Notes under the pieces: model-generated
What the model saw: the letters and a program-made list of their open reading frames with translations, nothing else
Databases searched by the model: none
What the model was told of the DNA's origin: nothing
In this document: piece after piece, positions 2,653 to 31,628 of the stretch
Numbering within the stretch: the first letter of the stretch is position 1
Layout: every line of letters begins with the position of its first letter
Position numbers and translations under genes: made by a program
DNA from: Ruminococcus albus 7 = DSM 20455
Lineage (GTDB): Bacteria > Bacillota > Clostridia > Oscillospirales > Ruminococcaceae
Assembly: GCF_000179635.2 (NCBI RefSeq)
Contig: NC_014833.1
Location: forward strand, 3,330,001 to 3,362,000
DNA: 32,000 nucleotides
Direction: 5' to 3'

Positions 2653-4395
2653 TTAGTCCTGATACTTGCCTCTCTTAACGTAGGTAGTATGCAGATACTT
2701 GTGAGCGTTGTGAGCGCCGGGAGCTTCAAAGAATTCCTTGTACAGCATATCGCAAACAGGGCTCTCGTGAGACATTCTCAGCTTCATGCTGCTGTCTGCA
2801 TCGTACAGAGCCTTAGCTCTGATAGCCTTGAGGTCAACGAAGTTTCTAACTGCGTCGCTCTGAACAGGCTGACCGCCGCCGTTGATACAGCCGCCGGGAC
2901 AAGCCATGATCTCAACGAACTGGTAATCTCTCTCGCCGGAGAGTATGCCGTCGATGATCTCTCTTGCGTTAGCAAGACCGGAAGCAACTGCTACCTTTAC
3001 GGTAACGCCGCCTACTGTGTAGGTAGCTTCCTTCAGACCCTTTGTACCTCTTACATCGTGGAACTCCAGAGGCTCGCACTTGCCGTCCAGCTTAACAGCT
3101 GCGGTTCTGAGAGCAGCCTCCATAACGCCGCCTGTTGCGCCGAAGATAGCGCCTGCACCGGAAGCGATCTCGAAAGGATCGTCAAACTTCTCGTCAGGCA
3201 GAGCATTGAAGTCGATACCAGCTTCTCTGATCATTCTGCCCAGCTCACGGGTCGTGAGTGCAACATCAACGTCATCATAATCGCCGTTTCTCTGCTCTTC
3301 TCTTGTTACCTCGAACTTCTTAGCAGTACAAGGGATAACGCTGACTACGAACAGGTTCTTGGGATCGATGCCGTTCTTCTGGCAGTAGTAGCTCTTGAGC
3401 AGTGCGCCGAACATCTGCTGAGGAGACTTGCAGCTCGACAGATGAGGCAGGAAATCAGGATAGAAGTGCTCACAGAACTTTACCCAACCGGGGCAGCAAG
3501 AGGTGAACATAGGCAGAGTGCCCTTGTTCTGGATCCTCTCGATCAGCTCGTTAGCTTCTTCCATGATCGTGAGGTCGGCAGTAACGTCCATGTTGAAGAT
3601 GTTAACGTCGCCCAGTCTTCTGATAGCAGCGACCATCTTGCCCTCAACGTTAGTACCAACAGGGTTGCCGAACTCTTCGCCCAGAGTAGCTCTGATAGAA
3701 GGAGCGGTGAAGAATACGACCTTCTTCTCGGGATCTGCGATAGCGTCCCAAACTTTCTTCTCGCTGCTCTTCTCGGTAAGAGCGCCTACAGGACATGATA
3801 CGATACACTGACCGCAGCCTACGCAAGCGGTAGATGCCAAAGGCATATCGAATGCGGAACCAACGTGAACGTTGAAACCTCTTCTGATGTTGCCGATAAC
3901 GGAAACGCTCTGTACATTCTTACAAGCAGCAACGCATCTCATACACTGTATGCACTTGTTGTTATCTCTTACGAGGAAAGGAGTGGAGTCGTCGATAGGC
4001 TTGTTCATTTCCTCGGGCATGAATCTGTCCTCATCTGCGCCGTAAGCAACGCTGAGCTTCTGCAGCTCACAGTTGTTAGCTCTTACGCAGGACAGACACT
4101 TCTTCTTGTGGTTTGAAAGGAGAAGTTCCAGAGTAGTCTTTCTGGACTTTCTAACCTTAGGAGTATTTGTGAATACCTCCATGCCCTCTGCTGCAGGATG
4201 TGTACAAGCAGCAACAAGACCTCTTGCGCCTGTGATCTCAACTACACAGATACGGCAAGCGCCGATGCAGTTAACGTCCTTCAGGTAGCAGAGTGTAGGT
4301 ATATCAACATTAGCAGCCTTAGCAGCTTCGAGAACGGTAGAACCTGCGGGAACTTCAACAGGTATGCCGTTTATTTTAAGATGAATCATTTCCAT
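2653..4395 (-). CDS. hydA: [FeFe] hydrogenase catalytic subunit (HydA/HndD type of trimeric NAD(P)- and ferredoxin-linked hydrogenases)
   Basis: 580 aa. N-terminal 2Fe-2S ferredoxin-like fold (CYLKDVNCIGACRIC) and several Cys clusters. H-cluster motifs are present: TSCCPGW, IPCTAKKFE and EIMACPGGCINGGGQP. A small-subunit-like C-terminal tail follows. GAGGAGG RBS. Confidence 0.95.
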   Translation of the reverse strand: MEMIHLKINGIPVEVPAGSTVLEAAKAANVDIPTLCYLKDVNCIGACRICVVEITGARGLVAACTHPAAEGMEVFTNTPKVRKSRKTTLELLLSNHKKKCLSCVRANNCELQKLSVAYGADEDRFMPEEMNKPIDDSTPFLVRDNNKCIQCMRCVAACKNVQSVSVIGNIRRGFNVHVGSAFDMPLASTACVGCGQCIVSCPVGALTEKSSEKKVWDAIADPEKKVVFFTAPSIRATLGEEFGNPVGTNVEGKMVAAIRRLGDVNIFNMDVTADLTIMEEANELIERIQNKGTLPMFTSCCPGWVKFCEHFYPDFLPHLSSCKSPQQMFGALLKSYYCQKNGIDPKNLFVVSVIPCTAKKFEVTREEQRNGDYDDVDVALTTRELGRMIREAGIDFNALPDEKFDDPFEIASGAGAIFGATGGVMEAALRTAAVKLDGKCEPLEFHDVRGTKGLKEATYTVGGVTVKVAVASGLANAREIIDGILSGERDYQFVEIMACPGGCINGGGQPVQSDAVRNFVDLKAIRAKALYDADSSMKLRMSHESPVCDMLYKEFFEAPGAHNAHKYLHTTYVKRGKYQD

Positions 4396-4412: not shown

Positions 4413-6305
4413 TTACTTCTTGATGATAGCGCCGAACTTACAGTTGTTCATGCAGACACCGCACTTGATACACTTGGTTGTATCAATAACGTGAGGATTC
4501 TTGACAGTACCTGTAATAGCGTTTGCGGGACAGTTTCTAGCGCAGAGCGTACAGCCCTTGCACTTGTCAGCGATGATCTCATACTGGAGCAGGTTCTTGC
4601 AGACGCCTGCAGGACATTTCTTCTCCTTGATGTGTGCGAGATACTCGTCGCCGAAATACTGAAGTGTGGAGAGTACAGGGTTAGGAGCAGACTGACCCAG
4701 TGCGCACAGTGAAGAAGACTTCATGTGTGTAGCCAGATCCTGGATCTTCTCCAGATCCTCCATCTCGCCCTTGCCGTCAGTGATCTTCTCCAGCAGCTGG
4801 AGGAGCTTTCTTGTACCAACACGGCAGGGAGTACACTTACCGCAGCTCTCATCAACAGTGAAGTTGAGGTAGAACTTGGATACATCGACCATACAGTTGT
4901 CCTCGTCCATAACGATAAGTCCGCCTGAACCCATCATGGAGCCCAGAGCAGCGAGGCTCTCGTAGTCGATAGGAGTATCTATATGCTGTGCAGGGATACA
5001 TCCGCCGGAAGGACCACCTGTCTGCGCAGCCTTGAATGCCTTGCCATCGGGGATACCGCCGCCGATCTCTTCGATGATCTCACGGAGAGTTGTACCCATA
5101 GGTATCTCAACCAGACCAACGTTGGTGATCTTGCCGCCCAGAGCGAATACCTTAGTACCCTTGGACTTCTCAGTACCCATAGCAGAGTACCAAGCAGCAC
5201 CCTTTCTGATGATCTGTGCGATGTTAGCGTATGTCTCAACGTTGTTCAGCAGAGTAGGCTTGCCGAACAGACCCTTAACAGCAGGGAAAGGAGGTCTCGG
5301 ACGAGGCTCACCTCTGTTACCCTCGATAGAGGTCAGCAGAGCAGTCTCTTCGCCGCATACGAACGCACCTGCACCCAGTCTGATCTCGATATCGAAATCG
5401 TGGCCTGTGCCAAGGATGTTCTTGCCAAGCAGACCGTACTCTCTTGCCTGATCCAGAGCGATCTGGAGTCTGTTAACAGCAACAGGGTACTCAGCTCTTA
5501 CGTATACATAACCCTGATGAGCGCCTACAGCGTAGGAAGCTATTGTCATAGCCTCGATAACAGCGTGGGGGTCACCCTCGAGGATAGATCTGTCCATGAA
5601 TGCGCCGGGGTCGCCCTCGTCTGCGTTACAAGCAACGTACTTTACATCGCCGGGAGCGTCCTTTGTGAACATCCACTTTCTGCCGGTGGGGAAGCCTGCA
5701 CCGCCGCGTCCTCTGATACCGGAATCGAGAACTTCCTTAACTACCTCATCGGGAGTCATGGAGGTCAGTGCCTTATACAGTGCCTGATAACCGTCGGTAG
5801 CGATATACTCCTCGATATCCTCGGGGTCGATAACGCCGCAGTTTCTCAGTGCGATTCTCTTCTGCTTTCTGTAGAAGTTTGTCTCATACAGAGATATGAT
5901 GGAACCGTCCTCGTGAACAGTCTCCTGATACAGCAGATCCTTGCAGATCTCACCGTTCACGAGATGCTCGTCAACGATCCTCTTGATGCCCTCGGGAGTA
6001 GCCTGTGCATAGAAAGCACCCTCAGGGTAAACGATAACAATGGGTCCGAGTGAGCAAAGGCCGAAGCATCCTGTTCTTACTACAAGTACTTCATCAGCTA
6101 TGCCCTTAGCAGCCAGCTCTTCCTTCAGTGCCTTCAGCACGTCCATGGAATGAGAGGACTGGCAGCCTGTACCGCCACAGACAAGTACCTGCTTGCGGTA
6201 GCCTGTTTCCTTAGCGAGCTTTTCGCCCTCCTCGGCAATTATTGTCCTGACTTTAACGATATCCGCTTTAGCGGCTTTGATCTTATTCAGTTCTTCGATG
6301 GTCAT
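4413..6305 (-). CDS. hydB: NuoF-like flavoprotein subunit of the hydrogenase (HydB/HndC)
   Basis: 630 aa. N-terminal thioredoxin-like 2Fe-2S domain. NADH/FMN-binding core (GRGGAGFPTGRKW, CNADEGDPGAF) and ESCGKCTPCR 4Fe-4S motif. Two C-terminal ferredoxin CxxCxxCxxxCP motifs. AAGGAGG RBS. Confidence 0.95.
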   Translation of the reverse strand: MTIEELNKIKAAKADIVKVRTIIAEEGEKLAKETGYRKQVLVCGGTGCQSSHSMDVLKALKEELAAKGIADEVLVVRTGCFGLCSLGPIVIVYPEGAFYAQATPEGIKRIVDEHLVNGEICKDLLYQETVHEDGSIISLYETNFYRKQKRIALRNCGVIDPEDIEEYIATDGYQALYKALTSMTPDEVVKEVLDSGIRGRGGAGFPTGRKWMFTKDAPGDVKYVACNADEGDPGAFMDRSILEGDPHAVIEAMTIASYAVGAHQGYVYVRAEYPVAVNRLQIALDQAREYGLLGKNILGTGHDFDIEIRLGAGAFVCGEETALLTSIEGNRGEPRPRPPFPAVKGLFGKPTLLNNVETYANIAQIIRKGAAWYSAMGTEKSKGTKVFALGGKITNVGLVEIPMGTTLREIIEEIGGGIPDGKAFKAAQTGGPSGGCIPAQHIDTPIDYESLAALGSMMGSGGLIVMDEDNCMVDVSKFYLNFTVDESCGKCTPCRVGTRKLLQLLEKITDGKGEMEDLEKIQDLATHMKSSSLCALGQSAPNPVLSTLQYFGDEYLAHIKEKKCPAGVCKNLLQYEIIADKCKGCTLCARNCPANAITGTVKNPHVIDTTKCIKCGVCMNNCKFGAIIKK

Positions 6306-10645: not shown

Positions 10646-10825
10646 AGTTATATACCTCCATTCATTACTGTTAATAGTTTACCATATTCTCCCCCATAAT
10701 GCAAGCGCATACCACCGTTTCCCCACGCATAAAAACGCCCTTGTGTGATGCGACGGTACTCATCCCACAAACCCGTATCCAAACAGAAATTTAACTCTTT
10801 CGGGCAGCGCGGAAATTTTTATAAT

Positions 10826-11019
10826 ATGGTCATCCCGCTGATGTACCATATTAATCGGTCTTGTATCGAAGCCTTAATCACCAGCACAATGTTTCATTAT
10901 TATATTTGATTATCCCGTTTACACACCAATTGATTTGGTGTAATATCAGAACCAGAAATGCTCGGCGGTTATCCTTTGTTATATAGCACTTTGCGGTGTT
11001 GCGTCAAAGGGATGACCAT
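10826..11019. mobile_element. MITE-like intergenic element, copy 1 (alternative reading: structured ncRNA)
   Basis: Perfect 11-bp terminal inverted repeat: ATGGTCATCCC (10826-10836) and GGGATGACCAT (11009-11019). The identical 8-mer TTTTATAA lies just outside each end (10817-10824 and 11021-11028). There is no ORF inside. Both ends recur at 30466-30591. Confidence 0.45.
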
Positions 11020-11030
11020 GTTTTATAAAG

Positions 11031-11078
11031 AAAGAAAAAACAGAGGATAGCTACGTTTGCAAACATAGCTGTCCTCTG
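11031..11078 (-). terminator. Rho-independent terminator of the GGDEF gene
   Basis: Stem CAGAGGA(C/T)AGCTA / TAGCT(A/G)TCCTCTG (11041-11078). On the minus strand it is followed by TTTTTTCTTT. Confidence 0.75.
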
Positions 11079-11134
11079 CCCAATAGATAGCATAAATTTT
11101 CTGCGTCATATCCCGCAGATCTGTCAGTGTCGAA

Positions 11135-24722: not shown

Positions 24723-24805
24723 GCTGATGAAAAAACACCCCTGCGCGTAAGAACGGTACGCATAAAGAAGTACTATGGCGTTTCTATTGACAGTACAGAG
24801 ATGAT

Positions 24806-25763
24806 GTGCTACAATTGTTACTGACAAAAATCGGAGTTTATAGGCAGGTGCTTAGATTGGACGATAACATTATATCCAAATTATGCAAAAAGTGTTTTTC
24901 TGAAATTCCACAATCAATTGAACGATGTTCGGTAGGACAAGGCAACTATGTCTTTATTGTTCAATTAACTGATACAACGTATGTCATTCGGTGCAGTCCC
25001 GAAAAGAACGCTTACAATGATACAGTATATTGGTTGGAGAAATTGGCATTTATAGAAATACCTATCCCTAAAATCGTTGCCAAAGGCGTATTTGAAGATA
25101 CCGAATATATTACCCTTACATATTTTGAAGGAAAGGATATCGGACTTGTATATTCACTTCTTAGTGATGAGGATAAGAGGACTATTGCAAGTGAAATTGT
25201 GTGCATTCAGGAGCGTGTCGCAGCATTGGAATTAGAAGATATTCCTTCCGAATGGACATGGCACTCCGAAATTAATTATATGCTTGACCGAGCTGAAGAG
25301 CGTATTGCGGCAAACGAATATTTTGATATTGAAAAAGTAGATAGACTTCGCAAATCAGCAATAGCTTTAGATAAGTATTTTGACAGAATAGAGCCAATAG
25401 CATATTTAGATGATGTAAGCACTAAAAATCTATTGATACATGACGGGCATATATCCGGGATAGTTGATATAGATTGGATAGGCATCGGAGATAGGCTTAC
25501 TTATGTTGCACTAACAAACATTGCTCTCCTGAACATGGGATATGATACAGATTATGTAAAATATATTCTGAAAGAAATGAATTTGAGCAGTATTCAGAAA
25601 AAAAGCATTTTTGTTTTATTCACTTATGTACTGTGTTGATTTTATGGGCGAGCGCGGAATGCAGTTTACGGATAAGTATATAGAGGTAAACGAACAAATT
25701 ATTGACAGACTTAACAGTATCTATGACTTGCTTTGGAAAGAATTTGAGGAACACGGTCATTGA
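24806..25763 (+). pseudogene. Aminoglycoside/choline-kinase-like phosphotransferase (APH family), apparently frameshifted
   Basis: The frame-2 ORF has a kinase catalytic-loop-like DDVSTKNLLIH and the metal-binding GIVDIDW, and stops at 25637-25639. Frame 3 is open from about 25587 to the TGA at 25761-25763 (FLFYSLMYCVDFMGERGMQFTDKYIEVNEQIIDRLNSIYDLLWKEFEEHGH). The two frames join if one A is removed from the A7 run at 25598-25604. Confidence 0.55.
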
Positions 25764-25812
25764 AATATAGTGATAAATTCTGATTTAGCTTAGCAACATA
25801 AATATGCACAAT

Positions 25813-26403: not shown

Positions 26404-26530
26404 ATGACCTCCTTCAGATCCGCAGCGAAATTTTTCGGACAAATGCCGCCCTTATCCACAGCAATATTCGCCCTATATCTATTATAAACAAACAATGTAC
26501 AGCTGCTTTATTTATTGTTACCGAGCAGCT

Positions 26531-27350
26531 CTTATTTATACATTTTTCTGTCCATTTATTAATGATCTTTGTCTATATGGGAATTATTTCCACCAAATTT
26601 TAAGCATTCTTGCTAATTCACCTATTAATAAAACGTTTCCATTGTTGTATTATACAATTTGAGTTAAATAGTTTAAACAATCGACCGCCGACCATTTTTA
26701 GCTCACGCTCTTATCATCACCGCAATTTTCAGTCATCCCCCGACGAAAACCATTACCGAAAATTTGCGTTCCGAATCTCATCATAAACCTTCGCTCCAAA
26801 AATTATATACAAAAAATGTACGTTTTATCACCCTCTCATGTCATAACAGAGGTTGTTTGTACTTGTTTTTTATCGTTTATTAATGAAGTATAAACTTCTT
26901 CCATATTTTTCCACTACTTTTTATCCTTCTTTGCTTAAACCATAGTTCAGAAAACGTTTTCGATGGCATTTCGCACAATCGCCCAAAATGCCCTTTTTGC
27001 CCCATTCCGACCTCTGAAATTTGTGTACAAAAATTGTATAGTCCTCTTCAAAAGTATTACCTCGCAAGCCTTATTTTATACAGATTTCTTCCTAATTATT
27101 AAAGGATTTTTACCTATTGTAAGATTTTTCCAGTAGTTTTTAAGCATTATTGCTAATTCATTCGTTCAGATAACCATTCTATTGACACAATCTACAATTC
27201 AAATTGTGAACACCACTTCACAATTTTCTCCGCCGATTAATTAACCGCTCGACGGGGAAATTACATCCAATGCACCAGGACTTCATATTTTCACTGCTCC
27301 ATTAATTGACACCTCCCGACCGTATCTTCACCATATCATATCCCCCTCTA
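26531..27350. repeat. Three degenerate tandem repeat units (about 320, 220 and 280 bp) in non-coding DNA
   Basis: Collinear anchors recur with fixed offsets of +321 and then +219 nt. TTATTAA is at 26556, 26877 and 27096. TTTCCA is at 26587, 26908 and 27127. AAACGTTT is at 26631 and 26952. TTTTAAGCATT(C/A)TTGCTAATTCA is at 26598-26620 and 27138-27160 (22 of 23 identical). Confidence 0.55.
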
Positions 27351-27501
27351 TATAATAGAAGCCACCGCGCACACAATACCAAAGTCACCCGTTTATCGCT
27401 TAAATGAACTGCCTTGTTGTGCAAAATATCCTACTTCGTGCAACAAAATGTCTTTTCGGTTGTGCAATCACACAAAACATTTTAAATCTTGCAATATTAT
27501 A

Positions 27502-27530
27502 TTGACAAATGATATTATACGTCGTATAAT
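27502..27530 (+). promoter_or_regulatory. Consensus sigma-A promoter of the padR operon
   Basis: TTGACA (27502-27507), a 17-nt spacer, then TATAAT (27525-27530), about 135 nt upstream of padR. Confidence 0.7.
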
Positions 27531-27535
27531 ATCAT
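27509..27535. promoter_or_regulatory. Perfect 27-bp palindrome overlapping the promoter spacer and -10 box (candidate operator)
   Basis: ATGATATTATACG-T-CGTATAATATCAT has 13-bp arms with no mismatch. Its position fits autorepression by the downstream PadR-family regulator. Confidence 0.55.
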
Positions 27536-27665
27536 CAGAGCAAAGATATTGCACAACTCAAAATACTGTGAGAGAAAATATATTACACAGTATACTGCAC
27601 TGCAGAGCAAAAGAGACGAGATGACACAAAACAAAAGAAACGCCTTAGGGCAAGGAGAATGACTT

Positions 27666-28031
27666 ATGCACAGAGTAATTAAAGAAAGGAGCAGAAATAT
27701 GGGATTTCCGGTCAATGCAGGATTGCTTGATGCTATGGTGCTTTCAGTGGTCCGTAACGACGATACCTACGGATATGAGATAACCCAGTTTCTCAGAAAA
27801 GCCGTTGATATCTCCGAATCGACCCTCTACCCCGTACTCCGAAGGCTCCAGAAAAATGAGTTTCTGGAAACATACGATAAGGAGTTCATGGGAAGGAACC
27901 GAAGATATTACAGAGTCACCCCGAAAGGGAACGAGGCACTGGAGGAATACCGCCGTGAATGGCAGGCACATAAAGAGAAGGTAGACAGTATATTGATGAA
28001 CAAGGGGGCGGACGACAATGAACAGACTTGA
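27666..28031 (+). CDS. PadR family transcriptional regulator
   Basis: Winged-HTH signature: LLDAMVLSVVRNDDTYGYEITQFL ... STLYPVLRRLQKNEFLETY ... RRYYRVTPKG. The alternative start at 27699 (MGFPVNAG...) has the RBS AAAGGAG and is at least as likely. Confidence 0.9.
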   Translation: MHRVIKERSRNMGFPVNAGLLDAMVLSVVRNDDTYGYEITQFLRKAVDISESTLYPVLRRLQKNEFLETYDKEFMGRNRRYYRVTPKGNEALEEYRREWQAHKEKVDSILMNKGADDNEQT

Positions 28032-29729: not shown

Positions 29730-30458
29730 ATGACCAAAGATATAAAAAAAGAGCGCGTATGGAAAAAAGGCAGAACAACAAGCGCGGCAAGTCTGGCAAA
29801 ACAGCGTGAGAATGACATCGTAAGCCTTACTATGGGCGCCATGGGCAGCATTGTAGGTGTGTTCATGCTGTATATGTTCAACACAAAAATAGCAAATATG
29901 CCCGTCCCGCTTCGCGCCCCTCTGATGTTCGTCCTTTACTGGGCTGTCGCTGTGATACCGATAATAATTATCCGTCAGGATAAAATGCGCCCTGCCGACC
30001 TTGGATTTGAAAAGGAAGGTATCATCAGACAGATACTTATCGGCATCGGACTGGGTCTTGCGACCTCACTTGTGCTGACAGGCATACCTGTTCTCGCAGG
30101 CTTCGGAGAGTACGTAAACAGCGGCAAGTCCTATGACGAATTATGGAAGTTCGTATACGAATTCGCTTACTGCATACTTTCGGTAGGCGCCGCAGAGGAA
30201 CTGGTTTTCCGCGGCTTTATATACAGTAAACTGAAAAGCCTTTTCGGCAAAGAGATATATGCCGTCGTAGGTTCGTCCCTCCTCTTCGGACTTTTCCATG
30301 TATTCAGAGGAAATATAGCACAGATCTTCGTCACCGCAGTGATAGGCTTCATATTCTGCACCTACAAAAATAAGATAAAGGGCTGTACACTCCTGTCACT
30401 GATGATATGCCACGGCGTATACGATGCCATGATAACCGTATGGGCATTGTACAAATAA
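29730..30458 (+). CDS. CPBP family intramembrane glutamic endopeptidase (CAAX protease-like)
   Basis: Polytopic membrane protein with the three CPBP motifs: AAEELVFRGFIY, FGLFH and HGVYD. Confidence 0.85.
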   Translation: MTKDIKKERVWKKGRTTSAASLAKQRENDIVSLTMGAMGSIVGVFMLYMFNTKIANMPVPLRAPLMFVLYWAVAVIPIIIIRQDKMRPADLGFEKEGIIRQILIGIGLGLATSLVLTGIPVLAGFGEYVNSGKSYDELWKFVYEFAYCILSVGAAEELVFRGFIYSKLKSLFGKEIYAVVGSSLLFGLFHVFRGNIAQIFVTAVIGFIFCTYKNKIKGCTLLSLMICHGVYDAMITVWALYK

Positions 30459-30465
30459 AAATATA

Positions 30466-30591
30466 GGCATCCTGCTGATACACCAAATTAACCGCAGTTA
30501 TCCTTTACCCGCCGCAGGCGGGGAAAGGATAACATAAACACGACGTTCCCTGGTATATAGCACTTTGTGGTGATGTGATAAAGGGATGACC
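30466..30591. mobile_element. MITE-like intergenic element, copy 2 (alternative reading: structured ncRNA)
   Basis: The left end GGCATCCTGCTGATACACCAAATTAACCG and the right end GTATATAGCACTTTGTGGTGATGTGATAAAGGGATGACC match the ends of 10826-11019. It contains the hairpin GTTATCCTTT-ACCCGCC-GCAG-GCGGGG-AAAGGATAAC. The identical 11-mer AAATAAAAATA flanks it (30453-30463 and 30594-30604). Confidence 0.45.
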
Positions 30592-30659
30592 GTAAATAAA
30601 AATAAAAGCGTCCTGCAATAAATAAAGAGAATGCAGGCATAATAAAGGAGAAAACAAAC

Positions 30660-31628
30660 ATGAGCAAAGCAGCAAAGGCAGCCGGCAGGATACTGCGCAT
30701 CATCGGCAGGATCATCCTGTGGATATTCATAGTCCTCATATCACTTCTGGTGATATGCGGCGTGGTCAATAAAATAATGCAGCAGGGCGAAAAAGACCTG
30801 CTGAAGGATGACCGCTGTCATATGGTGGAAGTAGACGGAAAAAATATGAGCATATACACCGAGGGCAGCGGCGAACACACCATAGTACTCATGTCAGGCT
30901 GGGGAACACCCTCACCCATGTACGATTTCAGACCCCTGTACGAAAAACTCAGCGATGACTGTAAGATAGCAGTCCTCGAAAAGTTCGGCTACGGCTTCAG
31001 CGATAAAACAGACGGCGAAAGAGATATAGATACCCTTGTCCGTCAGGACAGAGAAGCCCTGCAGAAGGCTGGCATAGAAGCCCCATACGTACTTTGCCCC
31101 CACTCCCTTTCGGGTCTTGAAGCTACCTACTGGGCTCAGATGTATCCCGATGAAGTCGAAGCCATTATCGGACTTGATATGAGCACATCGGTGCTTATGG
31201 AGCTTGAAAGCGACAATATGCTAACCTTTGAAAAGGTGCTCGGCAAGACCGTAGCCCTTTCGGGCATCAACAGACCCATGCTTGCTTTATCGGATCTGCC
31301 CGAGTGCCGTAACGCCGAGGAAAAGAAACAGTATATAGCCGTATATTCCGCCAACGACGGCAACAGTACCGTCCTGAGAGAGGCTGACAGCCAGAAAGCC
31401 AACTGCGAAAAGATAAAAAGCCTGCCCCTGCCCAAGACTCCCACTCTGCAATTCATATCAGGCACTAACAGGGATAACGAACGCTGGGTAGATTCTCACC
31501 GCGAGATGACAGATGCTTCTTCCCACGGCAGAATGGTACAGCTCGACTGCGGACACTACGTCCACCACTACGAATCCGAAAAGATAGCCAAAGAGATAAG
31601 ATCTTTCCTGAGCGAACTGAAAAAATAA
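30660..31628 (+). CDS. Membrane-anchored alpha/beta hydrolase
   Basis: 322 aa. N-terminal transmembrane helix, then VLMSGWG (oxyanion region), a nucleophile elbow CPHSLSGLEA, and a C-terminal LDCGHYVHH (catalytic His region). AAAGGAG RBS. Confidence 0.8.
   Translation: MSKAAKAAGRILRIIGRIILWIFIVLISLLVICGVVNKIMQQGEKDLLKDDRCHMVEVDGKNMSIYTEGSGEHTIVLMSGWGTPSPMYDFRPLYEKLSDDCKIAVLEKFGYGFSDKTDGERDIDTLVRQDREALQKAGIEAPYVLCPHSLSGLEATYWAQMYPDEVEAIIGLDMSTSVLMELESDNMLTFEKVLGKTVALSGINRPMLALSDLPECRNAEEKKQYIAVYSANDGNSTVLREADSQKANCEKIKSLPLPKTPTLQFISGTNRDNERWVDSHREMTDASSHGRMVQLDCGHYVHHYESEKIAKEIRSFLSELKK

Follow-up and report, generated by a model that had tools for sequence, protein, structure and literature searches.

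The 201-nt spacer between a gene for a CPBP/Rce1-like protease (29730-30458) and a gene for an alpha/beta-hydrolase (30660-31628) in Ruminococcus albus 7, both on the plus strand of the 32,000-nucleotide stretch of DNA analysed here (the window), raises the question of what kind of sequence lies between the two genes and how it came to be there. An earlier note, made from the sequence alone, had read the spacer as containing a shorter second copy of a terminal-inverted-repeat element with a target-site duplication. The features that it described were all located where it had placed them, and its core reading was borne out by the alignment of this element (copy 2) with the first copy (copy 1) and by an empty site in closely related strains. 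The evidence set out below makes it very probable that window 30464-30593 is a miniature inverted-repeat transposable element (MITE), a non-coding derivative of an insertion sequence, inserted with an 11-nt duplication.

Copy 2 and its insertion site

Copy 2 is a non-coding element of 130 nt on the plus strand (30464-30593), with the ends TAGGCATCC...GGATGACCGT, and lies near the end of a PadR-HAAS-DUF4097-CPBP-hydrolase gene cluster. It is flanked by two exact copies of the 11-mer AAATAAAAATA, at 30453-30463 and 30594-30604, and the left one includes the CPBP stop codon TAA (30456-30458; open reading frame 29730-30458), both as the earlier note had it. The insertion target AAATAAAAATA is A+T-rich and lies 5 nt past that stop codon, and the insertion left intact the ribosome-binding site of the hydrolase gene together with about 50 nt upstream of it. 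An equally valid parse of the locus is a 131-nt element with a 10-nt duplication; read as TAGG...CCGTA in this way, the element has better-matching tips.

The left terminal inverted repeat, TAGGCATCCTGCTGATACACCA (30464-30485, plus strand), obtained a position-weight-matrix score of 22.1 and resembles the left end of copy 1. A conserved right-end block at 30551-30593 (plus strand) scored 25.1 and includes the right terminal inverted repeat (30571-30592), the reverse complement of which is CGGTCATCCCTTTATCACATCA. The two repeats pair TA-GG-CATCC with TACGGTCATCC and then agree at 6/10 further positions. Folding of the whole element gave -44.3 kcal/mol (z = -3.7), with the structure closed by the pairing of its two ends. 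The sole open reading frame that overlaps copy 2 is an antisense 93-aa frame with a TTG start that continues into the hydrolase gene and is spurious; at 130 nt, the element cannot encode a transposase.

The contigs that encode the neighbouring hydrolase were looked up in other assemblies, and both filled and empty alleles of the spacer were recovered among strains of about 99% identity. The filled allele occurs in three independent assemblies (L002-L004; one NCBI isolate and two Logan assemblies), and copy 2 is identical in all of them; the NCBI record for the CPBP protein is in assembly GCA_000621285.1 (contig JHYT01000002.1). The empty allele was found in two independent assemblies, an ENA metagenome scaffold (L008) and a Logan assembly (L009), which share ~98-99% DNA identity with the window. 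Their CPBP-hydrolase spacer is 60 nt long, compared with 201 nt in the window, and reads ...GTACAAATAAAAATAAAAGCG..., with a single AAATAAAAATA. When 30464-30604 (141 nt, 130 + 11) was removed from the window in silico, the resulting sequence matched that of L008 and L009 with 6 SNPs in 600 nt. In the outgroup L006 (80% hydrolase identity), the spacer is 26 nt long, contains AAATAAAA once and lacks copy 2. Since each allele was seen in at least two independent assemblies, it is unlikely that either is an assembly artefact.

The presence of a single AAATAAAAATA at the empty site indicates that the flanking 11-mer was duplicated by the insertion and is not a chance match. The comparison of this spacer among related strains had been proposed in the earlier note, which had also considered that the spacer might prove ancestral and non-polymorphic, with no other copies in the genome, and that the flanking repeats might be chance matches. 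The close strains carrying exactly one AAATAAAAATA settle the latter point for the 11-mer; as to the former, strains differ at the site, and there is a third copy. Given the identical duplications, the invariant element in the filled strains, and the empty site in close strains and in the outgroup, we infer that the insertion of copy 2 is recent. Precise excision in the lineage of L008 and L009 is a possible alternative history, and under it the nature of the element would be unchanged.

Copies 1 and 3 and the range of the family

The likeness between copies 1 and 2 is concentrated in their ends. The left end of copy 2, GGCATCCTGCTGATACACCAAATTAACCG, aligns with 10828-10858 in copy 1 with 24 identical positions, one indel and 6 mismatches when counted by hand, and its right end aligns with 10977-11017 at 85% identity over 41 nt (or 33/38). 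The counts first given were about 25 of 31 for the left end and about 36 of 43 for the right end, the latter being slightly generous. The local alignment of the two copies scored 29, compared with 9.3 +/- 1.5 for shuffled sequences, about 13 standard deviations above them. A degenerate 24-mer for the right end matches only copies 1 and 2 in the 32 kb, with 0 matches expected from shuffles.

Copy 1 is a 196-nt composite member (10825-11020, plus strand; ends TATGGTCATCC...GGATGACCATG) located between two minus-strand genes, which encode an aldose epimerase and a GGDEF protein, and it is also present in L001, L010 and L011. It contains three forward end-motifs (10827, 10907 and 10967) and one reverse end-motif (11018), and amounts to a unit like copy 3 plus an extra left arm. 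Its tips match at 10/11 positions (TATGGTCATCC and CATGGTCATCC); once the terminal T/C mismatch is set aside, its terminal repeats have 13 identical bases (ATGGTCATCCC) and then 8/14 further matching positions. A candidate 8-bp duplication, TTTTATAA, borders it at 10817-10824 and 11021-11028. No empty site for copy 1 was found among the close strains, which are all filled, or among relatives of 82-84% identity, in which synteny is changed upstream of the epimerase gene. Within the centre of copy 1, the hairpin ACACACCAATTGATTTGGTGT is overlapped by a promoter-like TTTACA-17-TAATAT (10918-10946).

A third copy of about 102 nt was recovered by blastn of copy 1. It lies about 2 kb further on, outside the window, at L002 5808-5909 (minus strand in L002; corresponding to ~32,537-32,638 in window coordinates), between the terminator of the PspC gene and licD, and it is also present in L008 (11878-11979). 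Its centre is 93% identical to that of copy 1 over 59 nt, its terminal inverted repeats agree at 18/22 positions (GATTATCCCGTTTACACACCA and GGTTATCCATTTAACACACCA), and a 9-bp direct repeat, TTACATAAT, lies on either side of it as a candidate duplication. The orthologous PspC-LicD spacers of L006 and L007 (~80% protein identity) lack it. Comparison with these two spacers had suggested a 3-bp CAT repeat as the left boundary of copy 3; this boundary was dropped, as the alignment leads to the left repeat GATTATCCCGTTTACACACCA and the 9-bp repeat.

The family therefore comprises at least three copies in the ~52 kb of genome examined, all of them within about 22 kb. They share the end consensus YATGGTYATCCYKTTDAYRYACCA and imperfect terminal inverted repeats of about 22 bp, and none encodes a protein. 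The apparent duplications are 8 bp (copy 1), 9 bp (copy 3) and 11 bp (copy 2) long, of which an empty site confirms only that of 11 bp. Relative to the flanking genes, copy 2 is in the sense orientation and copies 1 and 3 are antisense; both orientations occur, which speaks for a mobile element rather than a cis-regulatory RNA.

Two further observations concern the surroundings of copies 1 and 3. Each follows immediately on the intrinsic terminator of the preceding gene (GGDEF for copy 1, PspC for copy 3) and has its right end toward that terminator; these terminators are at window 11040-11082 (minus strand) for copy 1 and at L002 5745-5800 (plus strand) for copy 3. The A/T-runs beside terminators may be preferred targets. 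Furthermore, contigs _57 (L003) and _112 (L010) of the Logan assembly SRR3314035 end inside the 59-nt segment common to copies 1 and 3, as would be the case if the repeat broke the assembly graph.

Searches over a wider range yielded only copies 1-3, the orthologue of copy 1 or chance matches. The first right-end pattern had 0 matches in 185,579 representative genomes, and a relaxed version had one match in the same set, in Aquimarina, which was rejected as chance because it lies inside a coding sequence (HIALWWGPKGM). Among metagenome contigs, the right-end pattern matched only L001, the orthologue of the copy 1 locus. Viral contigs gave 0 matches to the right-end and centre patterns; the terminal-repeat consensus had five matches there, which were discarded as chance, all being in coding sequence and none having an inverted partner. 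Blastn of copies 1 and 2 against plasmids returned no match, and a position-weight-matrix scan for the end-motif over ~170 kb of retrieved DNA, related species included, turned up nothing beyond the known copies. The genome, metagenome, plasmid and viral searches yielded no autonomous insertion sequence whose ends match those of the family. On these scans the family looks species-restricted or very narrow, or else the right-end patterns were too strict. A narrow range agrees with the genus-level specificity reported for prokaryotic MITEs (PMC11602168).

The nested hairpin and the operon transcript

Copy 2 contains a nested palindrome, GTTATCCTTTACCCGCCGCAGGCGGGGAAAGGATAAC (30497-30533), which was recognised as a self-inverse blastn match and by folding. 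The hairpin had been described as perfect; it is present, but its stem of 9 bp and 6 bp is interrupted by a 2x2 internal loop and is thus nearly perfect. Its arms, GTTATCCTTT, resemble the tips of the ends of the element. Its core, CCCGCCGNAGGCGGG, has the form CCCGCC-GNAG-GGCGGG, with a covarying A+T-rich lower stem and then ACGA.

Homologous hairpins were found in two other settings. In L007, whose hydrolase is 79% identical, an element at 3871-3949 occupies the same CPBP-hydrolase spacer as copy 2; its hairpin aligns with that of copy 2 with a score of 22 (shuffles, 9.3 +/- 1.5), and the inverted arms around it, GATCAATTTTGAA and TTCAAAATCGATC, are quite unlike those of copy 2. In L013 (5513-5617), and also in L014 and L015, a ~95-nt palindromic element with a homologous hairpin lies in the leader of a radical-SAM gene and is flanked by the 8-bp direct repeat AAAAATGT. 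The hairpins of these related species (L007 and L013-L015) have a GC-rich core, CCCCCGCCGNAGGCGG, homologous to that of copy 2. Small palindromic elements of the genus may have exchanged the hairpin as a module; alternatively, related elements may have independently entered the same CPBP-hydrolase spacer. That the GC-rich core is a selected 'cargo' module, carried in three differently armed palindromic elements of three Ruminococcus lineages, seems to us rather unlikely. If it were so, these small elements would spread a hairpin that functions as RNA or DNA, for instance by binding a protein or by directing how mRNA is processed or stabilised, and the CPBP-hydrolase junction would be a recurrent, possibly favoured, landing site.

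A stable GC-rich stem-loop just past a stop codon in an operon recalls intrinsic terminators and intercistronic stabiliser hairpins, and the earlier note had suggested that the element could act as a terminator. Prediction over 30350-30720 returned 0 terminator-like sites on either strand and no promoter-like site on the plus strand. On the operon strand, the hairpin is followed by AUAAACACG and the whole element by GUAAAUAAAAAU, both of which are A-rich and not U-rich. With no predicted terminator and no U-tract, a terminator role is not supported; copy 2 differs from intrinsic terminators in this respect and in that its hairpin arrived in a mobile insertion. In the operon transcript, copy 2 would be expected to form a long stem in which its two ends pair, without terminating transcription. 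At most, it could change how the mRNA is processed, or how stable its CPBP part is relative to its hydrolase part, and one might speculate that the long stem could serve as a substrate for double-strand-specific RNases or as a block to 3'-exonucleases. Such effects on mRNA processing and stability are described for Correia and ERIC elements. Most likely, copy 2 is near-neutral.

Identity of the element and its surroundings

Prokaryotic MITEs, which are non-autonomous class II elements, are defined by a size of about 50-800 bp and terminal inverted repeats of at least 10-15 bp, and their target duplications are quoted as 2-10 bp (PMC11602168). Copy 2 (130 nt), copy 1 (196 nt) and copy 3 (~102 nt) are all within this size range, and copy 2 has terminal inverted repeats and neither a transposase nor coding capacity. 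Its target sequence AAATAAAAATA is present twice when the site is filled and once when it is empty, and the 11 bp slightly exceed the quoted range. Its presence or absence is moreover polymorphic among ~99%-identical strains. Several observations count against the MITE reading or its simplest form. Duplications that differ in length (8, 9 and 11 bp) are not what one and the same transposase usually produces, and one simple recent insertion does not account for the related hairpin that L007 has in this spacer. In addition, the searches yielded no partner insertion sequence, and the three documented copies all lie within about 22 kb.

The element could also be a resident cis-acting RNA (a terminator, an attenuator, or a stabilising or processing hairpin) kept by selection, its likeness to copy 1 then reflecting RNA function. 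The strong fold of copy 2 speaks for this, as do some differences between the arms of copy 1, those of its orthologue in L001 and those of copy 2 that preserve pairing (G-C / G-U / A-U); in addition, the same spacer is occupied in L007 by a stem whose arms differ but whose inner hairpin is homologous. These apparently compensatory changes are few. The earlier note had weighed one G-C to G-U change as compatible with RNA pairing; the change is real, but over all mismatches between inverted-repeat arms in the three copies, 6 are wobble-compatible on the plus strand and 4 on the minus strand, with no significant strand bias, so that plus-strand G-U pairs were rejected as a mark of a strand-specific RNA. 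Searches of the whole window against Rfam 15 at gathering thresholds gave no match, and at permissive E-values the best match for the two copies was Termite-leu (20.5 bits against a 51-bit threshold, E = 0.034). Further evidence against a resident RNA is that the element is missing from 99%-identical strains, which have a clean single target, and from L006, that it lacks a U-tract and a predicted terminator, and that its copies are oppositely oriented to their neighbouring genes. We therefore regard this explanation as improbable, and an RNA role could in any case be a secondary effect of a MITE rather than a rival origin.

A hairpin-rich architecture, and a GC-rich hairpin core that is conserved across different elements, would also be expected of a REP/BIME-like or IS200/IS605-derived palindrome moved as single-stranded DNA by a hairpin-recognising Y1 (HUH) transposase; a very weak, sub-threshold Rfam match to IS605-orfB-I at window 27414-27532 (E = 0.13, 19.5 versus 94 bits) points the same way. 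REP/BIME and IS200/IS605 elements have no target-site duplication and no terminal inverted repeats, and they use a fixed short target on one side. Copy 2, in contrast, has inverted-repeat ends and an 11-nt duplication demonstrated by the empty site, and no Y1 transposase gene was seen in the window or its flanks. It is chiefly the target duplication that disfavours this origin, which we consider very improbable. Least credible of all is that the likeness to copy 1 and the flanking 11-mer arose by chance in intergenic DNA. The flanks are indeed A+T-rich and of low complexity, and the left ends match at only about 24/31 positions, but the right-end pattern with 0 expected matches, the alignment score far above shuffles and the 11-mer duplicated by insertion at the empty site together refute it.

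We return, then, to the MITE reading. In the mechanism we envisage, a DDE-type transposase encoded elsewhere in the genome would bind both ends of the element, cuts staggered by 8-11 bp would be made in the A+T-rich targets AAATAAAAATA (copy 2), TTACATAAT (copy 3) and TTTTATAA (copy 1), and gap repair would then give rise to the target duplication. The elements resemble bacterial MITEs generally in being non-coding and 100-200 bp long, in having imperfect terminal repeats that fold into a long hairpin and a target duplication, in occupying intergenic A+T-rich sites that are often beside terminators or in operons, and in showing strain polymorphism and a range at the level of the genus or species. 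Examples are the Correia elements of Neisseria, pneumococcal RUP, enterobacterial ERIC/IRU, and bcr1 and MIC231 of the Bacillus cereus group. The present family differs from known MITEs in that no sequence similarity to them was detected (no Rfam, plasmid or viral matches), in the extra nested palindrome of copy 2, and in a copy number of three or more; Correia and RUP have a TA duplication, unlike the 8-11 bp here. The IS231 subgroup of the IS4 family, to which the MIC231 cassettes belong, inserts into A+T-rich targets with duplications of ~9-12 bp (10-12 bp for IS231) and has ends beginning CATG...CATC. The A+T-rich targets and the long duplication are shared with the present family, and these ends resemble CATGGTCATCC, which gives a possible lead; the candidate duplications of 8 bp (copy 1) and 9 bp (copy 3) fall outside the 10-12 bp of IS231.

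The family is apparently undescribed so far, while the kind of element, a MITE, is well known. For a genus in which such elements are barely described, it is an additional MITE family whose duplication (10-11 bp) is unusually long, and it is a small repeat family at which short-read assemblies break. The recent, clean insertion polymorphism can be used as a strain marker in rumen Ruminococcus populations, and the filled and empty alleles form a natural pair for asking whether a MITE hairpin in an operon alters the expression of flanking genes. No new kind of biology is opened unless the common hairpin module proves functional.

Some features of the neighbouring DNA may be recorded here. About 130 nt upstream of the PadR gene, window 27450-27566 contains a perfect sigma-70-type promoter (TTGACA, 17 nt, TATAAT) that overlaps the palindrome GATATTATACGTCGTATAATATC, which is enclosed by the outer inverted repeat TTGTGCAAT/ATTGCACAA. 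This inverted repeat was considered as a further member of the family and rejected, as it surrounds a perfect promoter/operator palindrome upstream of PadR; the region probably serves the operon of copy 2 as its autoregulated promoter and operator. A 1.2-kb segment (26442-27666) lacks open reading frames longer than 66 aa, matches neither Pfam nor Rfam and is ~98% conserved in L008; it includes a 34-nt direct repeat in three diverged copies, at 26532, 26853 and 27072. A further strain difference was noted at 24771-25772, where the window has a ~1-kb low-GC (36%) segment with an APH-like phosphotransferase gene (24806-25639), and the 99%-identical strain L008 has in its place a different segment of ~0.55 kb (4713-5258) with a GNAT acetyltransferase fragment.
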